Sequence record: OR896830.1
Direction: 5' to 3' (one strand)
DNA: 64,000 nucleotides
Origin: Escherichia phage LinBro
In this document: positions 1,522 through 19,088 of the stretch, piece by piece
Numbering within the stretch: position 1 is the stretch's first letter
Layout: the number at the start of each line of letters is the position of its first letter
Notes under the pieces: model-generated
What the model saw: the letters and a program-made list of their open reading frames with translations, nothing else
Databases searched by the model: none
What the model was told of the DNA's origin: nothing
Translations under genes and position numbers: made by a program

Positions 1522-1527
1522 AATTTA

Positions 1528-1560: not shown

Positions 1561-1563
1561 GTT

Positions 1564-2463: not shown

Positions 2464-2464
2464 A

Positions 2465-3783: not shown

Positions 3784-3796
3784 AGTTAATCACCTA

Positions 3797-4156
3797 TTAT
3801 GGGAACAGACACTTAATGTCATCGTTTTTGAAAACAAAACTTGTGTAGTTATGACCATCAACATCCAACCAAACAGCCTGAACATCTACACCATCAAGAT
3901 TCTGGTAAAGCTCTTTGATGAAGTGGTCTTTTACAATCTGACTGCTAGTTGTTTCCAGCTTAATGTTCGAGATTGCTGAACCTACAGCCATATAGCCCAT
4001 GACACGTTTCTTCTCAGTATGCTTAATCTTACCATCTTTGTAAGCCATAATGAGATTGGAAAGAATCTTTACACCATAATACTTTTCAAGGTGAGTAGGC
4101 ACACCATAAAAGCCTAATGCGAAGTTTTCAGAGTGGATAATGTTTTCACGTTTCAT
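3797..4156 (-). CDS. hypothetical protein
   Basis: 119-aa ORF in co-directional gene block. Confidence 0.45.
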   Translation of the reverse strand: MKRENIIHSENFALGFYGVPTHLEKYYGVKILSNLIMAYKDGKIKHTEKKRVMGYMAVGSAISNIKLETTSSQIVKDHFIKELYQNLDGVDVQAVWLDVDGHNYTSFVFKNDDIKCLFP

Positions 4157-4157
4157 A

Positions 4158-4457
4158 TTAATCTGCCAACCTTAAATTGAAATTAACACCAAATTTTTCG
4201 CATACTTCCAACATATACTCAAGGGAGACGTTACCAGTGAGGTGGATTATGTTGGATACACGAGCCTGAGAGATACCACAAATTTTAGCGACTTGCTCTT
4301 GAGAAAGACCTCTGGATTTAATCTCTCTCTTAAAACGATGTGCAACGAAGTCTCTCATTTCGTCTACATCCATTGGACAAATATAACTCTCCATTTCAGC
4401 CTCTCTATCAGCCTCCCAATCATCTTGTGGAGCATAAGGGTCAAAAACCTCATTCAT
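4158..4457 (-). CDS. helix-turn-helix DNA-binding protein (XRE-like)
   Basis: C-terminal LSQEQVAKICGISQARVSNI HTH-like segment; start placed at internal Met (MNEVF) to avoid overlap, uncertain. Confidence 0.5.
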   Translation of the reverse strand: MNEVFDPYAPQDDWEADREAEMESYICPMDVDEMRDFVAHRFKREIKSRGLSQEQVAKICGISQARVSNIIHLTGNVSLEYMLEVCEKFGVNFNLRLAD

Positions 4458-4662
4458 CTTTCTTCTTCCGTTTGCGTGAAGTGTCAATCAATGAATCTAT
4501 GTTTGTAGCCCTAACCTTTTCACGTTCATCGTTAAGATAATCATCAAGAGCCTTTTCAATCTGTGAATCATCTTGACAGATAACTGTAAAGACTGTAAAG
4601 CCGTCTGTATCGTCAATTATCTTACCATAACCGCTTCTGGGATGTAACTTTTTAAGAGCCAT
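4450..4662 (-). CDS. hypothetical protein
   Basis: 70-aa ORF, short overlap with downstream gene. Confidence 0.35.
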   Translation of the reverse strand: MALKKLHPRSGYGKIIDDTDGFTVFTVICQDDSQIEKALDDYLNDEREKVRATNIDSLIDTSRKRKKKDE

Positions 4663-4663
4663 A

Positions 4664-5047
4664 TCAAATACCTGTGCAGCTTCTGTTTTCTAAGAAATAC
4701 TCAACACCGTACATAGCTTTTTGCATCAAATCTTCTTTAAACTGGATACGGTGGTTGAGCATAGACTGTACATCAATATCATCACGGTGTTTCTCTTTAA
4801 TGTTTGCAGATTGCAGGAAATACTCTGCAAGAACACGATACTGGTAGTCAGTCACCTTATCAGTCATCTCTGTTAAAGACTCTTCAGAGATTGGTTTAAG
4901 TAGCTCACCATTCGCTAGAGCAACACCCTTTACAATCTGACAAGTATCCTCTTGGACGCCTGATAAGTTCACATTTGGTAGTTCTGTTGAATGAACTGGT
5001 AAACTCATTGTCATAACCATTGCAGCAGCTAATAAAATCTTTTTCAT
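4664..5047 (-). CDS. secreted or periplasmic protein
   Basis: Signal-peptide-like N-terminus MKKILLAAAMVMTMSLPVHS. Confidence 0.5.
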   Translation of the reverse strand: MKKILLAAAMVMTMSLPVHSTELPNVNLSGVQEDTCQIVKGVALANGELLKPISEESLTEMTDKVTDYQYRVLAEYFLQSANIKEKHRDDIDVQSMLNHRIQFKEDLMQKAMYGVEYFLENRSCTGI

Positions 5048-5319
5048 AATGACCTCAAAGTTATATTAAATTTTGTATTACGTTGAGTATAAAAATAAGC
5101 TATAACACCTGACTTGTCAACAGATTTTATAGCTTATTTGGCAGATTTTTTATAAGGCTACTGCCATCCTTCCATGCTAGACTACGCCATGCCAAACCAG
5201 ACTTCACATCACCTTACCGTGCAATACATCACTTAAAAACCCTCTTAGAAGACTCTTAAGTGATACTGGTGAGTACCCGTTGGTTTATGCTGCTCAGTAT
5301 ACTCACCAAATTTTCTATG

Positions 5320-5508
5320 TCAACAACTTTCTAATAAAGTTTTATGAAGATTTTGCTTAACGACCCGCCTCACATGCCTATGCTCTTTCTTGATAAAGAG
5401 TGACCTCTTCTTAACAGAGCGCCTATTCTTGTAAGTATTACTAGGATACTTATCATGAACCGGACAACAACTCCCCGGATTTGTAAACTTGATAATCTCT
5501 CTTTTCAC
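5320..5508 (-). CDS. small basic protein
   Basis: 62-aa Lys/Arg-rich ORF abutting ligase gene. Confidence 0.3.
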   Translation of the reverse strand: MKREIIKFTNPGSCCPVHDKYPSNTYKNRRSVKKRSLFIKKEHRHVRRVVKQNLHKTLLESC

Positions 5509-6647
5509 TATTCATAATCCCTAATAACTAACCCAACAGGGAACAGCAGAGACCCCTTACGAGTCATCTTCTGGAACTGAACCGTTAAAGGCTTTCCGAT
5601 AAACTCATCAGGGTGCTCAGCAAGATACTGTTTTTTCTCATGAGTAGTCTTCCATGAGACATCTACAAAGACGTTAGGAAGAGTCTCTACAACGAACTTA
5701 CCATGACCACGTTTATCGGTCTTGACACCAGTAACTTTAAACTCTTCAGTGTGCATCTTCTTGTGCTTAATCAAGAAGTATGAACGGTGACCACACTCAT
5801 AGAAGGAGTCTTCAGAGATTGAACGGTACATTGCACCTTCAAACTTAGCTTCAACCCACTTATCATGAGCTTCATCAAACTCTTCCCAAGAATTTACACG
5901 ACGAGATTTAACAGGAACAACTTTACAGCCGTCTCTAAAATCATTCAATGGTGAAGTCTCAATAATATCTCTACGCTCAGGCCACGTCTTAGTACTGTCA
6001 CAGATATCGTACCAGTAAAACTTGAGTAGATGTCGGTCAGGATTGTCTTCATTTTTAATCATAGAGACAATATCTTCTAAGTCCCACCCATGAGCATAAA
6101 TCTCACCATCAAATTCATCAACATCTTTATGAATCCTCAACATTGCCATAATGTCAGGTATTAGCTCAGTAGGAATTTTATAAACAGTATTCTCACGAGA
6201 GTATGCTGTAAATACACTACCAATACTCAAGCGTCTTGAAATTCTACAACGAACACCATCAAACTTCGGTTGAGCATCAGCAGGGAATTTCAAATACTTT
6301 GCATGACTAACCTTTGAAGCATCATGAGCAAGCTGTACACCTACCTTCTCAGTATTCTGTGCAGACTCTTTTGTGTAAGCATAACCTTTACGGTCAACTT
6401 GCTTTTTATACTTAGCAGCAACTTCAAAGAGAGCTTGCTGTTCAGCGTTACGCTCATTCTTTTTACCGATGTTTTTAGGTTCTGCTGTATACTCTTCAAA
6501 CATCATCTTGCCATTTTCTTTACCATAGGTTGTAATAACTTTGTCACCTACAGCAACGCATGACCAGACGTTGAAAGAGCCATCTTTATTTTGTTTGTAT
6601 AGGATTGTCATTTTATTCCTCTGAGTGATACCAAGTGTTGCAAGCAT
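5508..6647 (-). CDS. ATP-dependent DNA ligase
   Basis: Motif I KFDGVR, motif III EFDGEIY, motif IV EGAMYR, motif V LIKHKK in correct order; 379 aa. Confidence 0.8.
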   Translation of the reverse strand: MLATLGITQRNKMTILYKQNKDGSFNVWSCVAVGDKVITTYGKENGKMMFEEYTAEPKNIGKKNERNAEQQALFEVAAKYKKQVDRKGYAYTKESAQNTEKVGVQLAHDASKVSHAKYLKFPADAQPKFDGVRCRISRRLSIGSVFTAYSRENTVYKIPTELIPDIMAMLRIHKDVDEFDGEIYAHGWDLEDIVSMIKNEDNPDRHLLKFYWYDICDSTKTWPERRDIIETSPLNDFRDGCKVVPVKSRRVNSWEEFDEAHDKWVEAKFEGAMYRSISEDSFYECGHRSYFLIKHKKMHTEEFKVTGVKTDKRGHGKFVVETLPNVFVDVSWKTTHEKKQYLAEHPDEFIGKPLTVQFQKMTRKGSLLFPVGLVIRDYE

Positions 6648-6804
6648 TACATGCGTAAAGCTCTAAGTCATTTTTATCCGGTTTATGAAAACAGTTTGCT
6701 CCGCAGTGGCAACGAAATGGCTTTCCACCAACTGTCAGGACGAAGGACTGAATCTTTCCATCAGGAGTTCGTACAGCATTTTTATGCTTATCTTCTTTGT
6801 TCAT
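6613..6804 (-). CDS. small Cys-rich protein
   Basis: CHC...CNACN cysteine cluster; overlaps ligase start. Confidence 0.35.
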   Translation of the reverse strand: MNKEDKHKNAVRTPDGKIQSFVLTVGGKPFRCHCGANCFHKPDKNDLELYACNACNTWYHSEE

Positions 6805-7007
6805 TTCCTCTTGCCACCAATTTCTACGTCAATAACTTGAACATCACCAGCAACATCAAACTTATGAATGATGCTTTCCACAGTGTAAGTCCAACCATCA
6901 ATGCGAACCAACTCACCTTCTCGTGGGACGATTGGGTTACGTTGAGCTACCGTTGTAGTAGAGTGAACAACATCATAACAATAGATATAGTTTACTAGGA
7001 CTTCCAT
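6801..7007 (-). CDS. hypothetical protein
   Basis: ORF 6801..7106 trimmed to internal Met with GAGGG RBS so it does not overlap upstream lipoprotein gene. Confidence 0.35.
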   Translation of the reverse strand: MEVLVNYIYCYDVVHSTTTVAQRNPIVPREGELVRIDGWTYTVESIIHKFDVAGDVQVIDVEIGGKRK

Positions 7008-7017
7008 CGTGAAACCC

Positions 7018-7278
7018 TCACTCAATAACCGTAGTGTGTGATTGACCATTTTTGCCATAGCTATAAGATGTTGTTGTTTGGGAGTTTGGACATCTGACAA
7101 CAACAATATCTCTGCTTATAGCATCACCATGTAACTTGTATACTCTGCAATCTTGCATCTCTGGTGGGAGGCTGTAAGAAGCATTTTTATCTTCATAAGA
7201 AGGGTTGCAGCCAGATAGAAAAATAACACCAAGCGCAATTACTGATTTCCACATAATACACCCCTGTTTACTGTTCAC
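7018..7278 (-). CDS. putative lipoprotein
   Basis: Lipobox-like LSGC after hydrophobic N-terminus. Confidence 0.45.
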   Translation of the reverse strand: MNSKQGCIMWKSVIALGVIFLSGCNPSYEDKNASYSLPPEMQDCRVYKLHGDAISRDIVVVRCPNSQTTTSYSYGKNGQSHTTVIE

Positions 7279-7441
7279 GATGCTCTACTTCTCTGTATGT
7301 ACGTCGATAATGAATGATAAGTGGTGCTAATTCATTGCTTTTAACATTTGAGCGTAACAGTTGCCAGTCAAAACCTTTACCAACTCTTCCATATAAATTA
7401 AAAAACTTAACTTTGCGTTTCATTTTCGGTATCTCCAATAT

Positions 7442-7669
7442 TCAGAGGTTAATATTAATACGTTCGCCCTTAAGGACTCCAGTACGGTCCCTTGCAATCT
7501 TACCATCAACAATAAGGATATGCACAGACCTTAAAGAGTCATTATTAAAACCTTTTACGAACTTACTAGGCATCACTACAATAAGCATCTCCTGAATCAA
7601 CTCTGGAGTATAGCAGTTATCATGAAGTTGTTGGATAACGTCTGCAAGTGTCATTTTTGATGTCTCCAA
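7442..7669 (-). CDS. hypothetical protein
   Basis: 75-aa ORF. Confidence 0.3.
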   Translation of the reverse strand: METSKMTLADVIQQLHDNCYTPELIQEMLIVVMPSKFVKGFNNDSLRSVHILIVDGKIARDRTGVLKGERININL

Positions 7670-7860
7670 TACTCAATGTCAATAAGTTCTTGTGCAATGC
7701 TTTTCAGATTACCTTTCAAGAAAACCTTCTCAGAACCTGAAAGAGATGAATTGTCAATTAACCTGTTCATTCTCTCAAACAACTTCTGCTTACGGTTCTT
7801 GATAGTTTCCTTTGAAGCGCCTTTCATCATCGCTGCATGGGTTCTTCCACGATGGCTCAT
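7651..7860 (-). CDS. hypothetical protein
   Basis: 69-aa ORF. Confidence 0.3.
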   Translation of the reverse strand: MSHRGRTHAAMMKGASKETIKNRKQKLFERMNRLIDNSSLSGSEKVFLKGNLKSIAQELIDIEYWRHQK

Positions 7861-7921
7861 AAGTCCTCCTATACAAGATATTGTATAAGGTACTCTTCCC
7901 TGAGCACCTTGTCAATACTAA

Positions 7922-8485
7922 TTAGTGTACTTCAAGCCAATTCTTACCAACTTTACCAGTACCAGTTACAAGCGTTTCCTCCTTAAGTCCTAAGTTTCTT
8001 GATGCCTGACCATACATCCAGTCAATCACTGCTTTAACATCTTGTGTCATCTCTTCTGGGCACTCCCAACTGTTCTCATCGTGGTATGCTAGAAGCAATC
8101 TAGCACCAATAGCTGGTTTTCGACCATTCAGCTTTGTAAGACCCTCTTCACAAGTTCTTCTACAAGCGAGGTTGATGGCTTCATTCTGAACCTGACTTTC
8201 CGAACCCATGAGCAGATAATTCAATAGTTTGTGTGGAGATTTACACCACAACCATGCACCAGCAACCTTTACAAAACCACCTTTAGAGATTGCAGCAGTC
8301 TTACCAAATACCTCTTCAAGAGCCTTCTTAGTGGCTTTGAAGTCAGCTTCCAAATTATCTATCAACTTTTTAATCTTAGGGAGGCGTACAAAGTAAGTTT
8401 GCTTAGTTAAAGCACCTTCTTCGGTTGTTGATGCTTTAATCGTCTTGGCAAACTTCTCATCACCTGCCCCAAACAATACATCTGG
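7922..8485 (-). CDS. DNA polymerase (family A), C-terminal segment
   Basis: Begins FGAGDEKFAKT (second half of motif B, cf. T7 YGAGDEK) and contains motif C LLAYHDE; frame opens just after a stop at 8486-8488. Confidence 0.8.
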   Translation of the reverse strand, partial: PDVLFGAGDEKFAKTIKASTTEEGALTKQTYFVRLPKIKKLIDNLEADFKATKKALEEVFGKTAAISKGGFVKVAGAWLWCKSPHKLLNYLLMGSESQVQNEAINLACRRTCEEGLTKLNGRKPAIGARLLLAYHDENSWECPEEMTQDVKAVIDWMYGQASRNLGLKEETLVTGTGKVGKNWLEVH

Positions 8486-9270
8486 TCAATACACTCGCAA
8501 GGTGTACCAGTTCTCTTATGAACTTCTCCGCATTTCTACGGAGTGTCGGACTATATCACGTAGTAGTAATACTACCGTTGCACTTGGGAATGGTCATTAG
8601 CTTACCACCCTACTCTACTCAGTTCATACATTAAGTATGCTTTTCGATAGTCTCTGAACGTTTCTCTGTTAGGAACTCTAAAATACTATTGTTTACTAAG
8701 GTATGCAATTGCTCTCTGCATATTATCAACGCTATCTGCAAGCAACCCCAAAGCCCTATTGCAATTGTGGCACAACATACCTCTTACTTTTCCGGTTTTG
8801 TGGTCATGGTCAACGACAAGTTTAGCCTTATGCCGTGAACTATTCATGATAAAACCTTCACCGCCACAAATTTGACATTTGTAATCACAGTTACGAAGTA
8901 GGGTTTCAACCTCTTCTCTTTCTAAACCATATGTTCTCAGGTAGTAATTCTTAACTCTACCTTTCTCTCCGCAATGCGAAGAACAATAAACTTGCCTTGC
9001 TGTTCTAGGCATGAACACCTTCTCACAGCTAGGACATTTCTTAGTAAGAACCCTATGTTCTGCTCTTCTGTCAAATTTTAATACGCAACTTCTGCACCGT
9101 TTTTGATTGTATTGGTATGGTTTAAACTCTGCACCACACTCAGTACACAATCTCTCTTTGTAACCTGCCATTGTCTCTCTCCTTTGCTTTAGGAGTCCTA
9201 ACAGAGACTTCGCTGCTGATTACCATATCTTTACAGACTTAGGCTTCCAGCAATTCACAACGTTTTACAT
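8477..9270 (-). mobile_element. intervening sequence in DNA polymerase gene (group I intron-like) carrying HNH endonuclease
   Basis: Polymerase motif B is split: upstream ORF ends RKKAKNGIYA...stop, downstream ORF resumes FGAGDEK; HNH ORF lies between; boundaries approximate. Confidence 0.55.
8686..9171 (-). CDS. HNH homing endonuclease
   Basis: CxxC pairs plus VVDHDHKTGKVRGMLCHNCNRALG HNH motif. Confidence 0.8.
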   Translation of the reverse strand: MAGYKERLCTECGAEFKPYQYNQKRCRSCVLKFDRRAEHRVLTKKCPSCEKVFMPRTARQVYCSSHCGEKGRVKNYYLRTYGLEREEVETLLRNCDYKCQICGGEGFIMNSSRHKAKLVVDHDHKTGKVRGMLCHNCNRALGLLADSVDNMQRAIAYLSKQ

Positions 9271-11452
9271 GCGCCACTGACGCATAAATGCCATTCTTGG
9301 CTTTCTTACGACCCTTACTAATTTCTTGAAGAAGGTTTGTATCCTGAGTAGCTCGACAAGTCAAGATATCTTCCTCTTTATTAAGGCTGAAGTAGATGCT
9401 ATTTAAAGTATGCGCATCAGTTCCTGAGTACACCACGTACAAGTCATTTTCAGAATCATAATGCAAATACTTGTCAATCTCTGGGTTTAGATACTGGTCA
9501 AAATGTTTGCAATAGTATCTGCCATCCTCTTGTTTGACAAACTCAACTTCTTCTTTACCCTCTGTCACTGCTTTGGTGAACTCTTTATCACCCATAAAGT
9601 TACACAGCAGTACAAGTTGCGCGCTATTCATATCTGCTGAAACAATATTAGTTCCTTCTTCACAAGTCCACACCTCCCTCATAGGTGCTCCATAGACAGC
9701 AGCACCAGACGGTACGTTTACAATACCATATTGTGTCATACGTCCAGTTGAAGTACCAAACACCATTGCACCAGCACTAAGGCGACCATCAGGACGAATC
9801 TGGTTCAACCAACCTTTTTCATCATCTTTTGAGTTCTCAATAGTTCTGCGTCGGTGCATTAAAGTATAGTACTTAGCAATCTTCTGTCCAAGCTCACCTT
9901 CAATCGTATCATAAGATGATTCAGTAAGTTTTGGTGAAGTACGGATTAAGCAAGGCTCAAGCAAATCTGTGTACTTCTTCACAGACCAGTTATGCTCAAT
10001 GTACTGTACACCTTCATGTTCAACATAACTCAAACCACACCGCTCAACCATTTCCTGCCACTTAGGATGCTTTGTAATCATCTTTTTATTGTCTTTGAAA
10101 CGACAAACTTTAACAGGGCGACCATCTGAGTCTTTCTTGTAGTTCCAGTCATCTGGAATCCAACCAACTGATTTCAAGTAGTCTTTAACAACTGCTACCT
10201 GAGTCATACGAGAAACTTCGAACTCAATTGGTGTATATGGTGCATCAATCAAACCTGTGTAGCGACTTGACTCAAGTTCAAAGTGATTGACAACGTGACT
10301 GTTATAGTACTTCACAGTCTTGACTGTTTTTACTGGTTTCCAGTCTTTGCATTTTTTGCCAATCTTTGCATTCAACTCGTTGCAGATTGCACGAGCATCC
10401 TTCATCGCTACAAAACCCTCTTTGTACTCTTCACCAGTTACAGAGTTGGTTGGTGTATAGCAATTTCTCTTTTCAATGTTAAAAATCTTTGTAGTTGGCT
10501 TACCAAATGGTTTGATTTCATAAGTCTGCATCTCACCATTACGTACCTGCTGACGGTACTTTGTCTTAGGGTACTTGGTAATTCTCTTCAGTCCATCTGC
10601 ATGACCAAATGTTTCAACATACTCATTCCAAGCTTTTGCAAACTCTTCTCCAGTCACTTTACCTTTGGTCTTAATAGTTGGAGGTAGATGTGGTTCAACC
10701 TCTGAAGCAAGCTCATTAGTCAACTTGTCAAGTTCCTTTACATGGAACTCCATAAGCTCCTTATCAGCTTTCCAACCATTGATAGCTTGTTGACTCATCC
10801 AGAAAGATGTTTCTTTAGCTCGCATATAGGTTTCATAAGTATCTATGCCACACTTCTTAAGCTTGAGATACTCATTATCAAGTGCCCGTTTAGTTTTGGC
10901 GTTAATACGGATATCTTCTACAACACGAGTGAAGATTTCTGCATTCCACACACCCCAATGTTCAATCTCTGGTTTACGGACACCAACACGAGCACCCCAT
11001 GCAGCCAAACCATGAGCACCTTTATAACCCTTTGGGGTTGGCCTATCCATCCACTGAACACGAGACTGGATAAGAGAATCCTGAAAGAAATTACTCCACG
11101 GCTTACATTTTGGATTATCAAAGTTCCATAAATCAGGCGCAATGTGATTGAAAACCCACCAGTCATAGCCGAGACCATTATGGATGCAAAGACGTTTTGC
11201 CTTTAACGCAAATTCAACACCTTCACGTAAGCCGCCCTTGATGTACTTAGTGTACTTGTGACCGAGGATAGGTTCATCTGTAAAGACCCATACAGGTGGC
11301 TCTTCATCATCAGATTTATAGTCTGCGAAAGCCATTACGTGCACTTTAGTGAACTCAAGGAGTAAACCATCAGTTTCTGTATCACCAACCAAATGTAAGT
11401 TTTTAAAATCTACGTTTTCCATTTTTACTCCCTCTAAAATCATTAACCTCAT
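9239..11452 (-). CDS. DNA polymerase (family A), N-terminal segment with 3'-5' exonuclease domain
   Basis: Exo I motif DTETDG near N-terminus, motif A-like ADMNSAQL, motif B start RKKAKNGIYA; last ~10 codons probably intron-encoded. Confidence 0.9.
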   Translation of the reverse strand: MRLMILEGVKMENVDFKNLHLVGDTETDGLLLEFTKVHVMAFADYKSDDEEPPVWVFTDEPILGHKYTKYIKGGLREGVEFALKAKRLCIHNGLGYDWWVFNHIAPDLWNFDNPKCKPWSNFFQDSLIQSRVQWMDRPTPKGYKGAHGLAAWGARVGVRKPEIEHWGVWNAEIFTRVVEDIRINAKTKRALDNEYLKLKKCGIDTYETYMRAKETSFWMSQQAINGWKADKELMEFHVKELDKLTNELASEVEPHLPPTIKTKGKVTGEEFAKAWNEYVETFGHADGLKRITKYPKTKYRQQVRNGEMQTYEIKPFGKPTTKIFNIEKRNCYTPTNSVTGEEYKEGFVAMKDARAICNELNAKIGKKCKDWKPVKTVKTVKYYNSHVVNHFELESSRYTGLIDAPYTPIEFEVSRMTQVAVVKDYLKSVGWIPDDWNYKKDSDGRPVKVCRFKDNKKMITKHPKWQEMVERCGLSYVEHEGVQYIEHNWSVKKYTDLLEPCLIRTSPKLTESSYDTIEGELGQKIAKYYTLMHRRRTIENSKDDEKGWLNQIRPDGRLSAGAMVFGTSTGRMTQYGIVNVPSGAAVYGAPMREVWTCEEGTNIVSADMNSAQLVLLCNFMGDKEFTKAVTEGKEEVEFVKQEDGRYYCKHFDQYLNPEIDKYLHYDSENDLYVVYSGTDAHTLNSIYFSLNKEEDILTCRATQDTNLLQEISKGRKKAKNGIYASVAHVKRCELLEA

Positions 11453-11679
11453 ACATTACTGCAAAAAATTATAAAAAGCAAGTTGACAATGCACTTGACA
11501 AGGTGTTAATCTTTGCGAAGTGGGTTTTTACTTAAAAGGTTACTTAACAGTTTAACTATACAGATACTTTAAAACTCTTAAAAGATTATTTAATAGCTTT
11601 TAAAAAGCTTTAAAGTATAACGTATAGAATACGTTAAGATAAAAGATTAAAACTTAATAGCTACTTAAAAGAGGCTTAC

Positions 11680-12102
11680 ATGCAGAAAATGTTTGTTCAC
11701 CCAGACATAGCTGACTTTGTTAGAGCTTTGCAGAAGTTGGAAGAACTTGACATTGCTGCTCAACGGGAATATGCTCACCATCACAGGAGAATGGTTGATA
11801 TACAACATGAAATAGAGTTGTCTGAAGACTATGAAGATGACTTAAAATGCTCTGTATTTGAGCATATGAAAGATGTTGCTACAGCGAGACGTAAAGCTAA
11901 AGACACAGTTGCTTTACTAGATTCTCTTAAAAAGAGGTTGCAAAGTGGTACAGACCTGTGTAATCTAGCATCACTGATTAACGATGTTGAAACTTCTTGG
12001 GATAGGCACTATTATCCACGTTCTGAAAAGACACTTGACTTTTCTTCATCCGAAAACTTAAAATGTTCTAGAAAGAAACTTAACCAACTGAGAGAGAAAT
12101 AA
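11680..12102 (+). CDS. hypothetical protein
   Basis: 140-aa ORF, first gene of plus-strand block. Confidence 0.45.
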   Translation: MQKMFVHPDIADFVRALQKLEELDIAAQREYAHHHRRMVDIQHEIELSEDYEDDLKCSVFEHMKDVATARRKAKDTVALLDSLKKRLQSGTDLCNLASLINDVETSWDRHYYPRSEKTLDFSSSENLKCSRKKLNQLREK

Positions 12103-12103
12103 T

Positions 12104-12904
12104 ATGAATATCGATGTAGAAAAGATGCTTGAAGAGAAAGGTGTTGATGAAGCATTCTTAATCAATGCCGTAGAAAGCATGGCTATGATTCTTCGTGGCA
12201 ACAACTACACAGAACAGTTTATGCCTGCAAGCTATAACTTGCCTGAAGACAAGTCTGATAACGGTGCTTTTGCAGAACAGGTTAATATGATGTTGACAGA
12301 CACTACACTTGCTCTGGCATCTATTGCGGTTGGTGTTGATGCACTTGCTGAGTTCATTTTTTATGAAATGCAAAAGAATGACTATATCAGGATGTCAGAC
12401 GAAGATAAGGAACTGTTGCTGACTAAGGACACTGATTTCATTATTGATACGCTTATCTCATCAACGAGTGCTGTTATGGCTGTTCTTGAGAAGCGTATGG
12501 AAGAGAAACTTTCACGATATGAAAAACTTGATTGGGGCGTAGAAGAATTAAACCCACGAATCAAAGAGATTATCCAGCAAACTAAAGAGTCTTTGGAAGA
12601 AGCTGTTGAAAATGACTCTGTAGCTGACATTGAACCACTTCAGGTGAAAGTTGCACTGATGATTCCAGCTATATCTACGATGATGAATATCGTTGCACTA
12701 ATCCAACTGTCACAGATGATGGGTGTGAGTATTGAGTTCATTGAGGAAATGACTGGTGGCGTTAGTATGCAAGCAATCAATGATGTTTTGGTGAACATTG
12801 GTGCTTCAATCATTGAAGAGAAACTACGCATTAACTTCGGTGATGATTTTGTGAAGCAAATCTCAGCTATGGCTGAAAAAGAGGCTGCTGAGCAACTGCA
12901 CTAA
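12104..12904 (+). CDS. hypothetical protein
   Basis: 266-aa ORF. Confidence 0.45.
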   Translation: MNIDVEKMLEEKGVDEAFLINAVESMAMILRGNNYTEQFMPASYNLPEDKSDNGAFAEQVNMMLTDTTLALASIAVGVDALAEFIFYEMQKNDYIRMSDEDKELLLTKDTDFIIDTLISSTSAVMAVLEKRMEEKLSRYEKLDWGVEELNPRIKEIIQQTKESLEEAVENDSVADIEPLQVKVALMIPAISTMMNIVALIQLSQMMGVSIEFIEEMTGGVSMQAINDVLVNIGASIIEEKLRINFGDDFVKQISAMAEKEAAEQLH

Positions 12905-12921
12905 GTCTTTATAAATCTTAC

Positions 12922-12947
12922 AAGCCTCCTTAGTTGGGGGCTTTTTA
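12922..12947 (+). terminator. rho-independent terminator
   Basis: AGCCTCC...GGGGGCT hairpin then TTTTT. Confidence 0.55.
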
Positions 12948-12965
12948 GTAATTAAGGGAGATAAA

Positions 12966-13709
12966 ATGAGTAATATTATCGCATTTACTGGAAAGGCACG
13001 TTCTGGAAAAGACACCTCATGTTCTATTGTGAAGAACATCTTAGAGGATGAGTATGGCTACAATGTTGCTGTAATGGCCTTTGCAGACAACCTTAAACTA
13101 TCTGCATCAAAGATATTTGACTTGACTTGGAATGACCTGTACGGTGAAACTAAAGAGACTCCACAGGTTTTTGACTTATCATACTCTGAACTGATGTTTA
13201 AAGTTACGGAAGCTATGGAGTTCACCTTCAGAGATGAACGTTACCATATGGACTTCAAGCTTATGTCAGAGTTAACCGGACGATTAATCATGGAGCTTAA
13301 GAAGGTTGCTAAACCGACTCTATTGACACGTCTGGGGTTTAGTAAAAAGTATAAATTCTCATCAAGACAAATTCAACAGGTTTGGGGTACTGAAGTTGTC
13401 CGTAAAGTAATGGGCGACAAGTTCTGGTCTAAAGACCTTGAAAAAAGAATGGTTAGATTCCATGAAATGTGCTCACTTAGAAACCAATATGGTTTTGTCT
13501 TAATCAGTGATTTAAGATTTGACTCTGAAGCTGAATGGCTGAGTAGATTTGCACACCAAACTATTGAAGTAAAAAGAGACAATGTGGACAAAGTTTCATC
13601 ACATGTTTCAGAAAATGGGATTTCTACAAAATATGAGCGTGACATTATTCATAATAATGGTACTCTTGCAGACCTTGAGAACAAGCTAAGAGCCATCATT
13701 AAAGTTTAA
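12966..13709 (+). CDS. deoxynucleoside monophosphate kinase
   Basis: N-terminal P-loop IIAFTGKARSGKDT, resembling T4 gp1. Confidence 0.65.
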   Translation: MSNIIAFTGKARSGKDTSCSIVKNILEDEYGYNVAVMAFADNLKLSASKIFDLTWNDLYGETKETPQVFDLSYSELMFKVTEAMEFTFRDERYHMDFKLMSELTGRLIMELKKVAKPTLLTRLGFSKKYKFSSRQIQQVWGTEVVRKVMGDKFWSKDLEKRMVRFHEMCSLRNQYGFVLISDLRFDSEAEWLSRFAHQTIEVKRDNVDKVSSHVSENGISTKYERDIIHNNGTLADLENKLRAIIKV

Positions 13710-13717
13710 AAGAGAGA

Positions 13718-13918
13718 ATGAAGATGAGAGTAAAAGACAATTTTAAAGTTATTGACCACCGTTTAGTGGAACTCTCATCTCTTTCCAATGAGGTAATGAT
13801 TGAACGTCTTAAGAGGGTTGAATCACGAAGGAAAGAGATTGCAGATGAAATTCATGAACTGGACAAGATTGAAAATGGATTGAAGGAAGAACTACAACGA
13901 AGAGGTGCTAATGTCTAA
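13718..13918 (+). CDS. hypothetical protein
   Basis: 66-aa ORF. Confidence 0.35.
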   Translation: MKMRVKDNFKVIDHRLVELSSLSNEVMIERLKRVESRRKEIADEIHELDKIENGLKEELQRRGANV

Positions 13919-15896
13919 AGGTCGTAAATTGAAAGAGGCTGGTCAGTTTGTTGGTCATTGCGCATGTCCACGTTGTGGTTCATCAGATGCTGGTTCAATC
14001 TATCATCATGACGATGGTTCTTATTCAATGACTTGCTTTAGTTGTAACAAAGGTTTCCCAGAGTGGGATTTTGATAAAGGACAAATCGTGAGCACTTATT
14101 CTACTGGTTCAGACAATAAAAACCGTACTTTCCGTGGAATGGATTTAGACGATGTGAAAGAAAACCTTGAAGCAATGGACTTAAAGGATAGGAAGATTCC
14201 TGCAAAAGTCCTTGAACGCTTAGGTATCAAGGTTGACATTGACAGTGACGGTGAAATTGATGCGCACTTCTATCCAACTTACAAACGTAATGAAGATGGT
14301 AAGCTGGAACATGTTGGCTACCGTGTTCGTCACCGTTACCCAGAAGACCATCCAAAAGAGCACCTACGTGGTAAGCTAAAAGACTTTTCTGGTGGTGTTG
14401 GAGACATTAAAGGTGAACTAGCAATGTTCGGTTCATGGATTGCTCCAGAAGGTGGTAACCGTCTATTCATCTGGGAAGGTGAGATGGAATGTGCGACAGC
14501 AATCTATATGACTTCTCTTGCGATTAAGGACAAGTCTCGTCGTAAGAATTACTGTCACGTATCTGTTCCATCAGGTGCAAACATTAAGTCTATCAAAGAC
14601 AACTATCAGTACATCACATCATTTGATGAGATTTACTTGTGCTTTGATAACGATGAAGCAGGTGCTAAAGCCACTAAAGAGGCTGCTGGCATTCTCCCTA
14701 TCGAGAAGGTTCGTTTATTCCAGTATCCAGAAGGTGTAAAAGACCTTAACGAATGGTGGACAAAGTTCTATAAAGAGAAAGATACAGTTCTTGAAGGGTT
14801 TAAGCAGCGTATATACAATGCACCCCGTTACTGCCCTGCTGGTATCAAGAACTTCGCAGATGGTTTTGAGGCAATGAAGAATCGTGGTCAGATTCCATTG
14901 ATTCCTTTCCCAGAATCATTCGGAGATTTGAACAGACTGACTTATGGCGGTTATGGTTTAGGTGAGATTACAACTCTGGCAGCACCCTCTTCAGTGGGTA
15001 AATCTGCATACACTCGTGAAATGATTTACACAGCTTGGAAAGAAACCGATTACAATATTGGTGTAATTCCTGTAGAAGATACCTATGAAGAGTTGATGGA
15101 GATGCTTTGTGCAATCCACCTTAGCAAGCAGATTTCTGAGATTCCTTATGACGAACGCGATTGGGATGAATTGAAGGAAGCACACGCAGAACTGTCTAAA
15201 GGTCGTCGTATCCACATCGTAGACCATCAAGGGGCAATTGACCAAGATAACTTGCTGGAGTTTGTTGACTATCTTGTTAATAGCTTAGACTGTAAGATTA
15301 TTATTCTTGACCCTATTACGTTGGCTCTGTCACGTTCAGATACGGATGAAGAGGAAGTTTTGTCTGAGCTATTGCGTCGTTGCAAACGCTACCAGTATGC
15401 ACAAGTGAACGTCTGTCACGTTCGTAAGAGTGCAGGTGGTCAGAAGGCTAACTCTGAAGGTGGGGATATCTCTGAAGAGGATATTAAAGGCTCTGGTGCG
15501 TATTTCCAGATTTCTATGAACAACATTCTGTTAATGCGTAACAAGGTTGACCCAGACCCTGTTAAGAAAAACTTGACAAAAATCAAGCTAACTAAATGTC
15601 GTCGTCACGGTAAGTCAACGGGTATTGCTGGTCATACTTGGTACAATCCAGATACAGGACGCCTCATCAAAGCATCTGGTTGCGGAGTTGACATTGATGG
15701 TGCAGCAGAAAATATTCGCCAACAGTTTGGTATTGGTGAAGCTGAAGACCATTACGATGACTCTTTGCCACATTATGAGGATGAAGTGTTTGACCGTGAG
15801 ACTGGTGAAGTCTATGCTGAAGAGCAGCGCCAAAGCTCAACGATTCCACCTGTATTAAGTGAGGATGCAGATGACTGCCCATTCGAAACTGAGTGA
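13905..15896 (+). CDS. DNA primase/helicase (T7 gp4-like)
   Basis: N-terminal Zn ribbon CACPRCG...CFSCNKG, TOPRIM-like EGEMECATA / FDNDEAG, helicase Walker A APSSVGKSA and Walker B IIILD. Confidence 0.85.
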   Translation: MLMSKGRKLKEAGQFVGHCACPRCGSSDAGSIYHHDDGSYSMTCFSCNKGFPEWDFDKGQIVSTYSTGSDNKNRTFRGMDLDDVKENLEAMDLKDRKIPAKVLERLGIKVDIDSDGEIDAHFYPTYKRNEDGKLEHVGYRVRHRYPEDHPKEHLRGKLKDFSGGVGDIKGELAMFGSWIAPEGGNRLFIWEGEMECATAIYMTSLAIKDKSRRKNYCHVSVPSGANIKSIKDNYQYITSFDEIYLCFDNDEAGAKATKEAAGILPIEKVRLFQYPEGVKDLNEWWTKFYKEKDTVLEGFKQRIYNAPRYCPAGIKNFADGFEAMKNRGQIPLIPFPESFGDLNRLTYGGYGLGEITTLAAPSSVGKSAYTREMIYTAWKETDYNIGVIPVEDTYEELMEMLCAIHLSKQISEIPYDERDWDELKEAHAELSKGRRIHIVDHQGAIDQDNLLEFVDYLVNSLDCKIIILDPITLALSRSDTDEEEVLSELLRRCKRYQYAQVNVCHVRKSAGGQKANSEGGDISEEDIKGSGAYFQISMNNILLMRNKVDPDPVKKNLTKIKLTKCRRHGKSTGIAGHTWYNPDTGRLIKASGCGVDIDGAAENIRQQFGIGEAEDHYDDSLPHYEDEVFDRETGEVYAEEQRQSSTIPPVLSEDADDCPFETE

Positions 15897-16148
15897 TAGT
15901 TATAAAAGAGAGGGGTTCACACCCTTCTTTGAAGAAAAAAGTTTAAATAAATTTCAGGAAGAGTGTTTGACAAAGATTGATAGACTCTATAGAATGCTCC
16001 TCATGAAATGCGATGGAGAGGTTGAGATAAAAGAAGATTTTCACCAGAGCATGATTACAGTCATCATTGCGCTGCCTCAGCATAATATTAGTTGGCTGTT
16101 TATAATTAAAGAAAATGTGTTTGAATATCAAGTATATCGGAGAATATC

Positions 16149-16298
16149 ATGAAACACTCTAAAGCATTTGAAAAAGTTTTTGGGGATTCCTTAAAAGCCA
16201 CTGCTGGAAAACCAGCAAAATACTATGAAGAAAAACGTGTAAGAACTGGAAAAACTGCACGTAAAGCAGCTTCTAAAGATAAGCACAACTTCCAGTAA
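16149..16298 (+). CDS. small basic protein
   Basis: 49-aa ORF below the track cutoff, found by reading the intergenic gap. Confidence 0.25.
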   Translation: MKHSKAFEKVFGDSLKATAGKPAKYYEEKRVRTGKTARKAASKDKHNFQ

Positions 16299-16370
16299 TT
16301 AGTATTTGACAATAGAGTATCAACAAACTAGAATTGGTACTCTTCATAAATTGAGATAGAGGTTTAAATA

Positions 16371-17228
16371 ATGTCTAAAGTTGTTAAAATGAAAGCTCCG
16401 GTAGAGAAATACAATGGTACTGAACGCCAAACTCTGCGATACCTGCTGAAAGATGTCTGGTTTTATTACCTGAACACTTCACCACGTCCGGGAAAAGGTA
16501 AGTCTATTGATAAGAAATTCCCAGGCAAAGACTGTAACTACAGCGTATCAATTCTGGCAGAAGACGGTAACAAACTGTTTAAAGAGTTTACTAAGTCTAA
16601 GAAAAATCCAGAAGGCTGGGATAAAGTCACTACTGAAGCAGTTGATGCAGATGACTTCGAAGAGAAGTTTGGTTGTAAACCACCTTTTGAAGCAGACACT
16701 TACTACATCTTGAAAGTAAGTCGTGCAGCAGCTTATAAAGATGGTGCTGTGTGGACAGCTAAACAGTCATTCCCTGTAATGCTGATTGAAGAAGTAAATG
16801 GTAAGCGTGTAGCTGTTAAACAGCCGATGAAGAAAATCAAAGCTCAAGCATCTGACAAACATGAAGATGATAAGAACTATGATGTAATTCATCCAGATAT
16901 TGCAGTTGGTAACGGTTCTTTTGGTAGTGTGATTCTTTCTACTCACTTCTACACTTTTGAGAACAATGTCCTGACAAAACCTATTCAGGAACAGTTTATC
17001 ATTGACACTCTTGTACCTTACACTGGTGGTAACGGTACTAATGGTGAACCTGAACTGGATGAAGATGAACTGGCTATGCTTGGTCTTGATGGTGTCGAAG
17101 ATAACGGTGAAATCACTGAAGAAGACGCAACAGACCATAAATCTTCGAATGATTCTGATGATGGTGACGATGAAGACTTGCCAGACCCAGATGACGAAGA
17201 AGATGAAGACTTCGATACAGAAGACTAA
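16371..17228 (+). CDS. single-stranded DNA-binding protein
   Basis: Long acidic C-terminal tail (DDGDDEDLPDPDDEEDEDFDTED) as in phage SSBs; position in replication module. Confidence 0.5.
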   Translation: MSKVVKMKAPVEKYNGTERQTLRYLLKDVWFYYLNTSPRPGKGKSIDKKFPGKDCNYSVSILAEDGNKLFKEFTKSKKNPEGWDKVTTEAVDADDFEEKFGCKPPFEADTYYILKVSRAAAYKDGAVWTAKQSFPVMLIEEVNGKRVAVKQPMKKIKAQASDKHEDDKNYDVIHPDIAVGNGSFGSVILSTHFYTFENNVLTKPIQEQFIIDTLVPYTGGNGTNGEPELDEDELAMLGLDGVEDNGEITEEDATDHKSSNDSDDGDDEDLPDPDDEEDEDFDTED

Positions 17229-17247
17229 TCTCTAAAAGTTACTTTAA

Positions 17248-17276
17248 AGCCCTGTACTTAGTATGGGGCTTTTTCA
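17248..17276 (+). terminator. rho-independent terminator
   Basis: AGCCCTGTAC...GTATGGGGCT hairpin then TTTTT. Confidence 0.5.
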
Positions 17277-17290
17277 TATGGAGAGCCATA

Positions 17291-18331
17291 ATGGAGAAGT
17301 ACACATTAACAAAGCTTCCCGATTCAGTTACACATGTCTTTATTGACTCTGACAGCATTGCCTATAAAGGTGCTTGTGTAGTTGAGAAAGCAAAGTATAA
17401 ATACGTTAATAAACTCACCGCAGAAGAATCTGAGCCATTTGATAATGCAAAAGATGCTGCAAGATGGTTAGCAGACCAGAGAATCCTTGTAGAAGAGCTT
17501 GGCCTAGCATTTGATGAAGATGAATGGGAAAGACAGACTTGGAAAGAAGCTAAGAGTGAAAAAGAAGCTATCATGGCTACTCAGCAGGTTCTTCAGGAAT
17601 GGCTTAAGGTTGTTGGTAAAGAAAGAACTTGGGTAGGTTATTTAACAGAGAAGGGCGTGCATAAACATAAAGACATTAAAGGTCTTGAGCACCAATATCA
17701 AGGTAACCGTAAAGATGCTGTCACACCAACACACTTAGTTGCTTGTCGTGAATACCTTCTGTCAAGACCAGAGTTCAAACTGATTCTTGATGGATTTGAA
17801 GCCGACTCTATCGTTATTGCTAAAGCTGAAAAGATGGGTAAAAAGGCTGCCTTGATGAGTATTGATAAAGACCTTCGCCAAGCTGAAGGGACTTACTGCA
17901 TTGATATGACCTATGAGAAGTCACCTTTGATTTTCATTGCTGACAACAACGTAGGTGAAATTTGGGATTGCCCAATAAAATCAACACCAAAAGCTAAGAA
18001 GACAGTTGGTGTAGGTTTTAAATTCCTTTGTTATCAAGCTGTGGCTGGTGACAATGCTGATAATTATTTTGGTTTAAAGGGCGTTGGTAAGGCTACTGTA
18101 ATGAAAGCCCTTGAAGGTAAAACCACTTACAAAGAGTGTCTTGATGCAATTTATGAGCTTTATGCTAAGAAAGAGTCATACACTTATGTCTCGTGGGATG
18201 GTCAAACAATTACCAGAACACCTTTAGAGTTAATGCAGCAACACTTTTTCTTAGCTTATCAGGAAAGAAACAAGAAAGACGATTTCACTTTTAAGAAATA
18301 TAATTGGGAGCCGTGTATGAATGAAGATTAA
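17291..18331 (+). CDS. 5'-3' exonuclease / flap endonuclease
   Basis: H3TH-like GDNADNYFGLKGVGKAT and N-terminal acidic DSDSIAYK cluster. Confidence 0.65.
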   Translation: MEKYTLTKLPDSVTHVFIDSDSIAYKGACVVEKAKYKYVNKLTAEESEPFDNAKDAARWLADQRILVEELGLAFDEDEWERQTWKEAKSEKEAIMATQQVLQEWLKVVGKERTWVGYLTEKGVHKHKDIKGLEHQYQGNRKDAVTPTHLVACREYLLSRPEFKLILDGFEADSIVIAKAEKMGKKAALMSIDKDLRQAEGTYCIDMTYEKSPLIFIADNNVGEIWDCPIKSTPKAKKTVGVGFKFLCYQAVAGDNADNYFGLKGVGKATVMKALEGKTTYKECLDAIYELYAKKESYTYVSWDGQTITRTPLELMQQHFFLAYQERNKKDDFTFKKYNWEPCMNED

Positions 18332-18818
18332 AGGATTTGGCAATTGCCCCACCTACGGTCATTGGGTATCTTTATGTGGGGAAGTTGACCCCACTAAACA
18401 TTTTGGCTTTGTCTACCTAGTGTACTGCAAAAAGACTGGACAGTATTATTTGGGTAAAAAACAGCTTAACAGTGTGACCAAAAGAAAAGTTGCTGGGAAG
18501 ACTCGGAAGAAGGTAGTCACTAAGGAGAGTGATTGGATGACTTACGAGACTTCTTCTGAGTATATTAAAAAAGATATTGAGAGTTTTGGAAAAGAATTTT
18601 TTGACTTTTACATTATTCAGACCTACTACACAAAAGGTGGCCTAGTCTATGGTGAAGCAAACCTTCAACATAAATTCGATGTAATGACAAAAAGGATTGA
18701 CTCTAAGCTCAGACTCTTCTACAATGCCAATATTGCAGCAATTAAGTTTATCACTAAAGAAACTTATGAAGATGCTGAAAAAAGAATCCATAAGGTCATG
18801 AAAGCAAATTGTGCTTGA
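18321..18818 (+). CDS. GIY-YIG-like nuclease
   Basis: FVYLVYC...QYYLGKK resembles GIY-(10)-YIG spacing, with downstream Arg. Confidence 0.35.
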   Translation: MKIKGFGNCPTYGHWVSLCGEVDPTKHFGFVYLVYCKKTGQYYLGKKQLNSVTKRKVAGKTRKKVVTKESDWMTYETSSEYIKKDIESFGKEFFDFYIIQTYYTKGGLVYGEANLQHKFDVMTKRIDSKLRLFYNANIAAIKFITKETYEDAEKRIHKVMKANCA

Positions 18819-18824
18819 TAACTA

Positions 18825-19088
18825 TTGAGAGAGAATAAAATGTTTAACAAAAGTAAAGCTGTGAGTCATGTAGCAAAAGTTGACAGCAAGATTGAAGAAC
18901 TTGAGCGCATTCTTGCAAATGCTAGAGAATCAATAATTAAAGAAGTTGAAGCTGTTGAATCACAAATGCAGCACCTAATGCTTAAACGCCAAGAGCTACG
19001 TGAGCATCTAGAATATATTGAAACACGAGAGCTAAAGGTTAACAGATATTTTAAGGAGTCCAAATGTTTAACTCAAGAGAATCAGTAA
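18825..19088 (+). CDS. hypothetical coiled-coil protein
   Basis: 87-aa ORF. Confidence 0.4.
   Translation: MRENKMFNKSKAVSHVAKVDSKIEELERILANARESIIKEVEAVESQMQHLMLKRQELREHLEYIETRELKVNRYFKESKCLTQENQ

Follow-up and report, generated by a model that had tools for sequence, protein, structure and literature searches.

The stretch of DNA analyzed here, the window, comprises 64,000 nucleotides (nt) of Escherichia phage LinBro (sequence record OR896830.1), and our subject is a 12-nt motif, CTTGACAAGGTG, that recurs between its genes, first in the intergenic region at 11453-11679, which has the DNA polymerase gene on its left and replication genes on its right. Around this motif, a 4-kb stretch shares 98.5% identity with Escherichia phage phiWec172 and matched 259 related records, which identifies the window as most of the genome of a Felix O1-like myovirus (Ounavirinae, Felixounavirus). 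Gene order is the same as in Felix O1, the classic Salmonella typing and biocontrol phage: thymidylate synthase through DNA polymerase are encoded on the minus strand, the plus strand follows with the replication, nrd and rII genes, a lysin-containing block returns to the minus strand, and ORF41, the tRNAs and the late genes come after it on the plus strand, with 26 tRNA genes at 58.6-63.6 kb. Conservation was assessed in thirty 21-kb loci of Felixouna-, Moogle- and Susp-like phages from IMG/VR, in the complete Felix O1 genome, in Citrobacter phage Moogle (another genus, ~80% identical here) and in an outgroup, Erwinia phage Pistou (Kolesnikvirus, ~60% protein identity). Sites are named by their position in the window: 11.5k, 27.5k, 36.6k and 56.5k on the plus strand and 7.9k on the minus strand, with footprint alignments of 21, 12 and 13 distinct sequences at 11.5k, 56.5k and 27.5k, respectively.

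Exact copies of the motif start at 11494, 27494 and 56492, all on the plus strand, and the variant TTTGACAAGGGG lies at 36600, just as an earlier sequence-only reading had listed them. Three exact copies compare with 0.03 expected, and 0 of 100 shuffles reached three. A fifth site went unmentioned in that reading, namely ATTGACAAGGTG on the minus strand at 7916-7905. The 9-mer core TTGACAAGG occurs five times in the window against 0.78 expected, and 19 matches carry at most two mismatches to the motif against 6.8 expected, five of the 19 being CTTTACAAGGGG within 57-bp repeats at 42639-45366. The notion that a 12-mer simply recurs in an AT-rich genome can draw on the abundance of TTGACA (81 copies in the window), but AGGTG follows in just four of those 81, and the copies are intergenic and conserved across genera; chance recurrence is refuted and retains next to no probability. 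The proposal that the copies occupy regulatory positions is borne out, since every one of the five TTGACAAGG sites falls between genes (intergenic DNA makes up 9% of the genome) and shares the orientation of the genes downstream. The 11.5k and 56.5k copies fall in the two divergent intergenic regions, 11453-11679 and 56403-56630, where minus-strand blocks had rightly been said to meet plus-strand blocks, and the longer block they were reported to share reaches further than described, from an A-tract through TTGACAAnGnACTTGACAAGGTGT and ~22 nt to ACTTAAAAGGTT...ACAGATA.

The same pattern extends to relatives. The complete Felix O1 genome has only five TTGACAAGG sites, all orthologous to the five in the window and all in the 9.2% of its DNA that is intergenic, except for one that overlaps the last 4 nt of a gene; its structural-gene block has none. 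The four GGTG-type sites are kept across the sampled genera: 7.9k and 11.5k in nearly all of ~30 Felixouna-, Moogle- and Susp-like contigs, and 27.5k in most of those contigs where the fetched flank covers the position. Moogle retains TTGACAAGGTG at three orthologous sites (7.9k, 11.5k and 27.5k), and Felix O1 has the 36.6k site at 2298. The motif is real and under selection, and this enrichment and conservation thus dispose of the concern, voiced with the original observation, that both might be lacking. A broader preference accompanies it, as non-coding TTGACA in Felixouna- and Moogle-type genomes favors A at +1 (~60%) and G at +3 (~55-60%), a preference absent from the Erwinia phage. The motif sites are related by descent, with the 11.5k, 56.5k and 46.7k blocks plainly paralogous; when TTGACAAGGTG, 13 nt (ATGTGGGTCTTGA) and TAGGCTTA at 27.5k are compared with TTGACAAGGTGTAGGCTTA at 56.5k, 19 of 19 positions match around a 13-nt indel.

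We consider it likely that the 12-mer is the sigma70 consensus -35 hexamer, TTGACA, together with five or six adjoining bases of paralogous promoters, and that it is not an independent signal; the same 12 bases would then recur because these promoters are paralogous cassettes. A perfect TTGACA, invariant across orthologues, is found at all five sites, as is a -10 element with A at its second and T at its sixth position at a distance of 17-18 bp, measured at 11.5k and 56.5k from an upstream hexamer, and each site is non-coding, upstream of genes and co-oriented with them. The adjoining AGGTG can be explained without invoking a new signal because it forms either the 5' arm of a hairpin (27.5k and 7.9k) or the TG of an extended -10 (11.5k and 56.5k). 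With a consensus -35 as its core and AGGTG otherwise accounted for, the implied view of a distinct motif outside normal sigma70 promoters is not supported. The accompanying remark that three of four copies lack a good -10 is half right. No -10 lies 17-18 bp from the motif's own TTGACA at 11.5k and 56.5k, where the conserved TAnnnT instead pairs with another TTGACA 12 bp upstream of the motif's, but both 27.5k (TGATAGGCT) and 36.6k (TAGAAT) have one at 18 bp.

In the mechanism we envisage, the host sigma70 holoenzyme would bind the A-tract and the -35, with TG and a minimal -10 completing recognition; Felix O1 encodes no RNA polymerase of its own (PMC3185647). The sites in fact share most features of Escherichia coli-type sigma70 promoters with a proximal upstream promoter (UP) element subsite and an extended -10 (TGn), a type that virulent coliphages use for early transcription: perfect TTGACA, a spacer of 17-18 bp, T-12, A-11 and T-7 retained in the -10, TG just upstream of it, AAAAAGnnn abutting the -35, and a place upstream of co-oriented genes. 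They differ in their minimal -10s (three of six matches), in the TG that abuts the -10 at 56.5k and in a second -35-like hexamer within the spacer at 11.5k, 56.5k and 46.7k, which lies outside the textbook promoter. The signal itself is thus probably ordinary, a set of host-type promoters that divides into stem-loop cassettes and a double -35 family (Table 1).

Table 1. Predicted promoter elements and stem-loops at the motif sites and related elements of the window (hexamer 1, upstream TTGACA; hexamer 2, TTGACA within the motif)
Feature	Position	Strand	Details
7.9k copy, ATTGACAAGGTG	7887-7916	-	-35 at 7915-7910; hairpin AAGGTGCTC/GAGTACCTT at 7910-7887; putative minimal -10 TACCTT at 7892-7887
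11.5k UP-element-like A-rich tract, AAAAAATTATAAAAAGCAAG	11463-11482	+	abuts hexamer 1 of the 11.5k promoter; read from sequence
11.5k hexamer 1, TTGACA	11483-11488	+	invariant in orthologues; 18 bp upstream of conserved TGnTAnTCT
11.5k motif, CTTGACAAGGTG	11494-11505	+	hexamer 2 (11495-11500) + AGGTG; final TG (11504-11505) is the putative extended -10 TG
11.5k putative -10, TAATCT	11507-11512	+	with preceding TGT, extended -10 TGnTAnTCT; predicted start near 11519
27.5k motif, CTTGACAAGGTG	27494-27505	+	single -35 hexamer (27495-27500) + start of hairpin; begins 3 nt after nrdD stop
27.5k stem-loop, 16 bp, AAGGTGATGTGGGTCT/AGGCTTACATCACCTT, then T-run	27500-27535	+	encloses the putative -10
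27.5k putative extended -10, TGATAGGCT (TAGGCT)	27516-27524	+	18 bp from -35; predicted start near 27531, in 3' arm
36.6k predicted rIIA-rIIB intergenic promoter	36600-36630	+	-35 at 36601-36606; hairpin AAGGGGCT/AGCCCCTT at 36606-36625; -10 TAGAAT at 36625-36630
57-bp promoter/stem-loop repeat, first of five, CTTTACAAGGGGCTTA...TAAGCCCC	42639-42695	+	putative -10 TAAAGT
Other 57-bp repeats	43109-43165, 43489-43545, 44559-44615, 45355-45411	+	
46.7k third paralogous double -35 promoter (predicted)	46741-46769	+	TTGACA (46741-46746), N7, TTGACA (46754-46759), TTGG, TAGATT (46764-46769)
56.5k UP-like tract, TAAAAAAGTTG	56470-56480	+	before hexamer 1
56.5k hexamer 1, TTGACA	56481-56486	+	unchanged in the 12 distinct orthologues; TAnnnT follows after 17 bp
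56.5k motif, CTTGACAAGGTG	56492-56503	+	hexamer 2 (56493-56498) + AGGTG
56.5k putative -10, TAGGCT	56504-56509	+	predicted start near 56516
56.5k possible second -10, AATACT	56514-56519	+	15 bp from hexamer 2

The double -35 family is defined by 11.5k, 56.5k and 46.7k, the last of which lacks AGGTG. In the arrangement we propose, the UP-like A-tract and the upstream TTGACA (hexamer 1) would serve as the -35 region for a TAnnnT 17-18 bp away, while at 11.5k and 56.5k the reported motif supplies a second TTGACA 12 bp downstream (hexamer 2), within the spacer at about -24 to -18, and its trailing TG would act as the TG of an extended -10. Conservation at 11.5k follows this outline closely: AAAAAGCAAG is invariant in the 21 distinct orthologues, both hexamers are invariant, and no columns of the alignment vary more than those separating them, a hypervariable stretch of four to six bases after hexamer 1 that is also present at 56.5k. 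The AAAAAGnnn tract, which always abuts hexamer 1, precedes other strong TTGACA promoters in the window as well. Downstream, TG.TA.TCTT is conserved across genera at 11.5k (TGTTAATCT, TGGTAGTCT and TGTTAGTCT), giving a -10 signature of TG(T/G)TA(A/G)TCT (TAATCT or TAGTCT). At 56.5k TTGACAA and TG are invariant around two varying bases (GG, CG, GA or GC), and the -10 reads TAGGCT, TAGCCT, TAGTGT or TAAGTT among orthologues, T, A and the last T being constant and only the middle positions free to vary. Orthologues of 46.7k have TAACTT or TAATGT as the -10 and keep both hexamers. Pistou has one double promoter of the same geometry, at position 81722 (TTGACAttctacTTGACAggggcTAAAGT, -10 TAAAGT), and its orthologue of 11.5k, in the polymerase-upstream region, has hexamer 1 only, with TACATT 17 bp away.

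Because TAnnnT keeps a conserved distance from hexamer 1 (18 bp at 11.5k and 17 bp at 56.5k; its distance from hexamer 2 is a mere 6 and 5 bp, respectively), the -10 would pair consistently with hexamer 1, which also carries the UP-like tract. At 11.5k hexamer 1 is thus the putative functional -35 of a rightward promoter for the replication-gene operon, and at 56.5k that of a rightward promoter for the DUF5681 gene, the 471-amino-acid gene and the tRNA cluster. The original Felix O1 paper placed its P41 at the 56.5k hexamer 1 with TATAGG and did not find a promoter in the 96-97 region, the equivalent of 11.5k (PMC3185647). GenBank record MZ726792 carries pattern-based promoters at both divergent regions, so that promoters at these places have already been marked by earlier annotators through pattern matching.

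The MZ726792 promoter at 56.5k consists of hexamer 2, 15 bp and AATACT, and thereby lends itself to a different view in which the motif's TTGACA is a working -35 and each site holds two overlapping promoters, P1 from hexamer 1 and P2 from hexamer 2, with starts ~12 nt apart. Hexamer 2 is indeed a perfect and conserved -35, with an unvarying AA(T/C)ACT (AATACT or AACACT) 15-16 bp beyond it at 56.5k. A 15-bp spacer is poor for sigma70, however, and at 11.5k the sequences 15-18 bp from hexamer 2 (CGAAGT, GAAGTG, AAGTGG and AGTGGG) include nothing resembling a -10 in any genus; 46.7k and the Erwinia copy likewise have no -10 for hexamer 2. A wider sample gives the same answer. Scanning IMG/VR for AAAAAG-N2-4-TTGACA-N6-7-TTGACA returned at least 120 stretches, with 89 distinct contexts among the matches listed, and among these, in which two lineages dominate, TAnnnT stands 16-18 bp from hexamer 1 in 65 of 89 and from hexamer 2 in 11 of 89. 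Tandem promoters therefore seem to us an improbable account, if a conceivable one at 56.5k, and we favor a promoter built on hexamer 1.

The remaining copies are organized quite differently. At 27.5k, 36.6k and 7.9k the upstream gene (nrdD, rIIA and DNA polymerase, respectively) has its stop codon 3-6 nt before a single TTGACA (6 nt in the case of the polymerase gene at 7.9k), and a hairpin with AAGG(T/G)G as its 5' arm follows the hexamer directly; TAnnnT (TGATAGGCT, TAGAAT and TACCTT, respectively) falls within the loop or the 3' arm, at a distance from the -35 of 17 bp at 7.9k and 18 bp at the other two. The hairpin at 27.5k folds with -23.5 kcal/mol (z = -6.1) and may represent an intrinsic terminator for nrdD transcripts. 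Since the predicted start of the 27.5k promoter falls inside the 3' arm, the promoter's own transcripts would be unable to form this terminator. Across the 13 distinct sequences, 99.5% of cells are paired against 36-58% in slid controls, TCTTGATAGGCTT is invariant in all 13, and in two of them the last G of the motif is replaced by A together with a C to U change 25 nt downstream. Pairing and covariation together indicate structural selection on the stem-loop, and the compensatory change from G-C to A-U shows that the last G of the motif is constrained by pairing and not by sequence-specific recognition.

The hairpins at 36.6k (-13.3 kcal/mol, z = -2.6) and 7.9k (centroid -12.9 kcal/mol, z = -2.3) are less stable. 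The 7.9k cassette is conserved in 26 distinct sequences despite differing upstream and downstream genes, and the 27.5k and 7.9k cassettes occur in at least three different upstream contexts and before three to four downstream genes among ~30 contigs. A scan for a -35 followed at once by a hairpin and TAnnnT recovered ten elements in the window, including the five 57-bp repeats, which carry CTTTACAAGGGG and sit between small early genes at 42.6-45.4 kb. Their hairpin has about -12.9 kcal/mol (-16.5 kcal/mol and z = -2.9 for the whole 62-nt fold), and their -10 is TAAAGT in four copies and TATCTT in that at 43489-43545; the Felix O1 paper gives these elements merely as 57-bp direct repeats (PMC3185647). 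Before the gene at 16371, the stretch at 16306-16350 appears to be another cassette of the same design with a co-varying stem: it reads TTGACAATAGAGTA here and TTGACA(A/G)GGGAGTA in Moogle- and Susp-type phages (contigs L082, L083, L085, L086 and L091, ~9000), where changes in the 3' arm match.

These single-hexamer cassettes resemble the promoter-early stem-loops (PeSLs) of T4-like phages, composite promoter/terminator cassettes that adjoin ORFans and nrdD and are associated with indels (Arbiol et al. 2010, PMC2839356; Comeau et al. 2014, PMC4122927). Both have an AT-rich lead-in and sigma70-like boxes, with a G-then-C stem-loop that either separates the boxes or overlaps the -10; both are placed just past the stop codon of one gene and ahead of the Shine-Dalgarno sequence and start codon of the next, are repeated between small early genes, occur near nrdD and have flanking genes that differ between related phages. 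The stem-loop is present at 27.5k, 36.6k, 7.9k and the five 57-bp repeats, and an association with gene insertion, deletion or replacement shows in the differing genes around the 27.5k and 7.9k cassettes. By analogy, the cassettes may work like PeSLs: transcripts arriving from upstream would fold the hairpin and be terminated or attenuated, whereas RNA polymerase starting at the cassette would begin beyond the 5' arm, escape the hairpin and read on. The PeSLs belong to T4-like phages and the present elements to Ounavirinae, with cassette activities, terminator function included, predicted here from sequence. The junction copies are not PeSL-like, as neither 11.5k nor 56.5k forms a hairpin (z = -1.3 and +0.8). 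We found no earlier description of a PeSL-like organization in Ounavirinae, but the element is of a known kind; its presence would mean that the type of promoter/terminator cassette to which gene shuffling in T4-like phages has been ascribed is also used by Felix O1-like phages.

Several observations weigh against the promoter interpretation. The -10s of the GGTG sites match the consensus at only three of six positions (TAATCT, TAGGCT, TAGGCT and TACCTT), and a consensus scan of positions 1-20000 did not return the 7.9k and 11.5k sites. The conserved TG at 56.5k (-14/-13) has no base between it and the -10, and so misses the place of the canonical extended -10 by one position, and the 7.9k hairpin shows zero covariation in its 26 distinct sequences. 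The standard sigma70 model offers no explanation for an invariant second TTGACA within the spacer that recurs in unrelated phages. The literature searched yielded no transcription start map or RNA-seq study of a Felix O1-like phage, and the supplements of the UAB_Phi87 paper do not contain these sites. Finally, in semi-quantitative reverse transcription PCR (RT-PCR) of Felix O1, ORFs 41, 42, 93, 97-99 and 120 reach their maximum at 25 min, whereas genes behind promoters with strong -10s peak at 5-10 min (PMC3185647, Table 3). This late maximum of the downstream genes leaves room for an added regulator in a phage whose temporal regulation of transcription was described by the authors as unknown, with no proteins modifying polymerase specificity and no MotA/AsiA-like functions apparent (PMC3185647).

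One such regulator could be a phage DNA-binding protein for which the motif, or the second TTGACA, is the operator, delaying or shutting off a 'middle' class of promoters. We regard this as improbable, and the same holds for its candidate binder, an Xre-type helix-turn-helix (HTH) protein encoded at 4158-4487 on the minus strand and homologous to Felix O1 gp85. The timing just described fits, as it is the four GGTG sites with their weak -10s that precede genes peaking at 25 min, and hexamer 2 is invariant within a spacer, where sequence is normally free. The protein matches HTH_3 (E = 6e-10) and, below threshold, Sigma70_r4 (21.8 bits against a cutoff of 24.1), although a PDB search with it returned generic Xre-family matches only. 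It is present in Felix O1 and Moogle and has no tblastn match in Pistou, a phage whose orthologous sites are likewise devoid of the motif, but this correlation rests on a single outgroup genome, and the double layout also occurs in T4-like contigs. The motif does contain a 9-bp palindrome, CTTGACAAG, yet Xre dimers usually need inverted repeats of 14-20 bp and this is the only one found. We rejected a palindromic operator, for seven of the nine base pairs are inherent to TTGACAA and the outer C/G pair is unconserved, its 5' base being C, A, T or G. AGGTG, moreover, lies at -29 to -25 in the single sites and at about -17 to -13 in the double sites, which is inconsistent for one regulator, and the final G at 27.5k tracks pairing in the hairpin and not sequence. 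Hexamer 2 shares nothing past TTGACA across paralogues, which points to sigma region 4 as its reader.

The second hexamer nevertheless calls for explanation, being invariant across Ounavirinae genera at three paralogous promoters. As a tentative suggestion, the duplication may be no accident, and a UP-like tract, TTGACA, N6-7, TTGACA, N2-3, TG, N0-1 and TAnnnT may together make up a functional promoter design in its own right, in which hexamer 2 might conceivably serve as an additional docking site, either for sigma70 region 4 or for a factor mimicking it or competing with it, and so tune the strength or timing of key operons. A partial precedent is lambda PR', where a -35-like TTGACT next to a pause-inducing -10-like element brings about sigma-dependent promoter-proximal pausing. 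Both cases have a second -35-like hexamer near a -10-type element at a spacing too short for promoter geometry; in lambda PR', however, the extra element follows the promoter -10 and acts, with Q, on the early elongation complex, whereas hexamer 2 lies upstream of the -10, in the spacer, and the transcribed region has no -10-like element.

Most of the 89 contexts among the matches listed are not Felix O1-like. The largest family among them consists of uncultured T4-like contigs (L098, L100, L105, L112, L125-L129 and others) with a near-consensus double -35 promoter, AAAAAGTTGTTGACAAAGGGCTTGACAtgtgtTATAGT (for example at 12244-12282 of L125). It stands where a gap of small size separates two genes, one a short ORF that follows a UvsW-type helicase and the other, of ~181 amino acids, labelled late sigma factor by BLAST matches, points antisense to the flanking genes, and shares up to 27 identical nt (AAAAAGTTGTTGACAAAGGGCTTGACA) with some Felixounaviruses. 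In smaller families among the matches listed, the double layout takes ordinary, sense-oriented promoter positions. The shared layout may reflect cassette transfer or a favored design. We found no prior description of a conserved second hexamer; should it prove functional, the known bacterial promoter elements would gain a minor new member, and a distinct double -35 design, if real, would provide a testable handle on the temporal program of Felix O1, for which no regulator is known.

Other known signals were compared with the sites. The middle promoters of T4 that depend on MotA and AsiA also have a minimal TAnnnT -10, often with TG, and serve replication and nucleotide-metabolism genes that peak in mid-infection, but the sites described here have an intact consensus -35, unusable by AsiA-bound sigma70, and hexamer 2 lies 4-6 bp from the -10 and not 11-13 bp. 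A MotA box ((a/t)(a/t)(a/t)TGCTTtA at -30) was rejected, as no site has TGCTT there and TTGACA is intact instead. In sigma54 (-24/-12) promoters (TGGCAC-N5-TTGCA) GG and GC doublets lie 12 bp apart, and the two hexamers, though at this distance, are TTGACA and TTGACA (GA, not GG/GC); compared by eye with consensus sequences, sigma54, sigma32 and sigmaE all misfit in spacing or key bases. A T4-type late promoter was suggested by TATAAATA after the 56.5k motif, but the Felix O1 genome has only three copies, none before structural genes. Reading AAGGTG as a Shine-Dalgarno sequence was likewise dismissed, since the annotated ORF118 start follows directly, with no spacing, and the element is upstream of the predicted transcription start. 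Leftward candidates that use TTGTCA, from the reverse complement of the hexamers, have -10 spacings of 10, 14, 22 or 23 bp, and an 18-bp option at 56.5k (TGCAATAGT) is only partly conserved; we claim no leftward promoter. Rfam scans of the window and seven related loci returned tRNAs only.

The leaders downstream of the double -35 promoters raise a further alternative, namely that the 11.5k and 56.5k blocks are replication origins primed or activated by transcription, as in the T7 primary origin and T4 oriF/oriG. The 11.5k block does lie between the DNA polymerase operon and the primase/helicase operon, the AT-rich leaders of 160-230 bp are more conserved across genera than the flanking genes, and the octamer CTTAAAAG has 25 copies against 5.7 expected, clustered in the leaders and in an ORF-free stretch at 47778-49424. 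The turn in GC skew at ~11.5 kb, on the other hand, coincides with the switch in gene orientation and so is not independent evidence, and the motif also stands at plain gene-to-gene junctions (27.5k, 36.6k and 7.9k). An origin at these blocks appears quite unlikely to us; it would in any case concern the leader and not the motif, and is compatible with the promoter explanation that we prefer. That explanation places candidates for the main early and middle promoters of a Felix O1-like phage, including those at the two divergent junctions where the original paper had one promoter or none, with uses in annotation, in engineering (gene insertion without breaking regulation) and in explaining indel hot spots.

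The leaders have features of their own. At the two junctions (11513-11679 and 56510-56630) they are almost invariant across genera, beyond the conservation of the flanking proteins. The octamer clusters on the plus strand in the long untranslated leaders of all three double -35 promoters (11531-11671, 46801 and 56530-56608) and again at 48068-48450, with five copies in 47778-49424, and could represent protein- or RNA-binding repeats or origin iterons. The 11.5k leader contains a hairpin, TAACGTAT-AGA-ATACGTTA, at ~11618-11636, for which Moogle-type phages show a compensatory change (TATGTAT/ATACATA), and the 56.5k leader one of AGATATC-TTTCTG-GATATCT at ~56563-56582. The stretch at 47778-49424 (~1.6 kb) has no ORF of at least 50 amino acids, forms the convergent junction between the early plus-strand genes and a minus-strand block, and corresponds to the 12306-13927 gap of Felix O1 and to ~81.7-83.1 kb of Erwinia phage Pistou; it holds promoter-like TTGACA sites in addition to the octamers and has no Rfam match.

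Two of the genes that precede stem-loop cassettes are themselves interrupted. The DNA polymerase gene (7925-11443, minus strand) is split relative to Felix O1 gp96, with residues 1-721 encoded at 11443-9281 and residues 722-906 at 8479-7925, and the 0.8-kb insertion, which carries an ORF of 161 amino acids (8686-9171), is probably an intron or a homing-endonuclease insertion. The nrdD gene (24605-27488) is likewise divided into residues 1-403 at 24605-25813 and residues 400-714 at 26544-27488, around a 0.7-kb insertion that carries an ORF of 154 amino acids (25917-26381).

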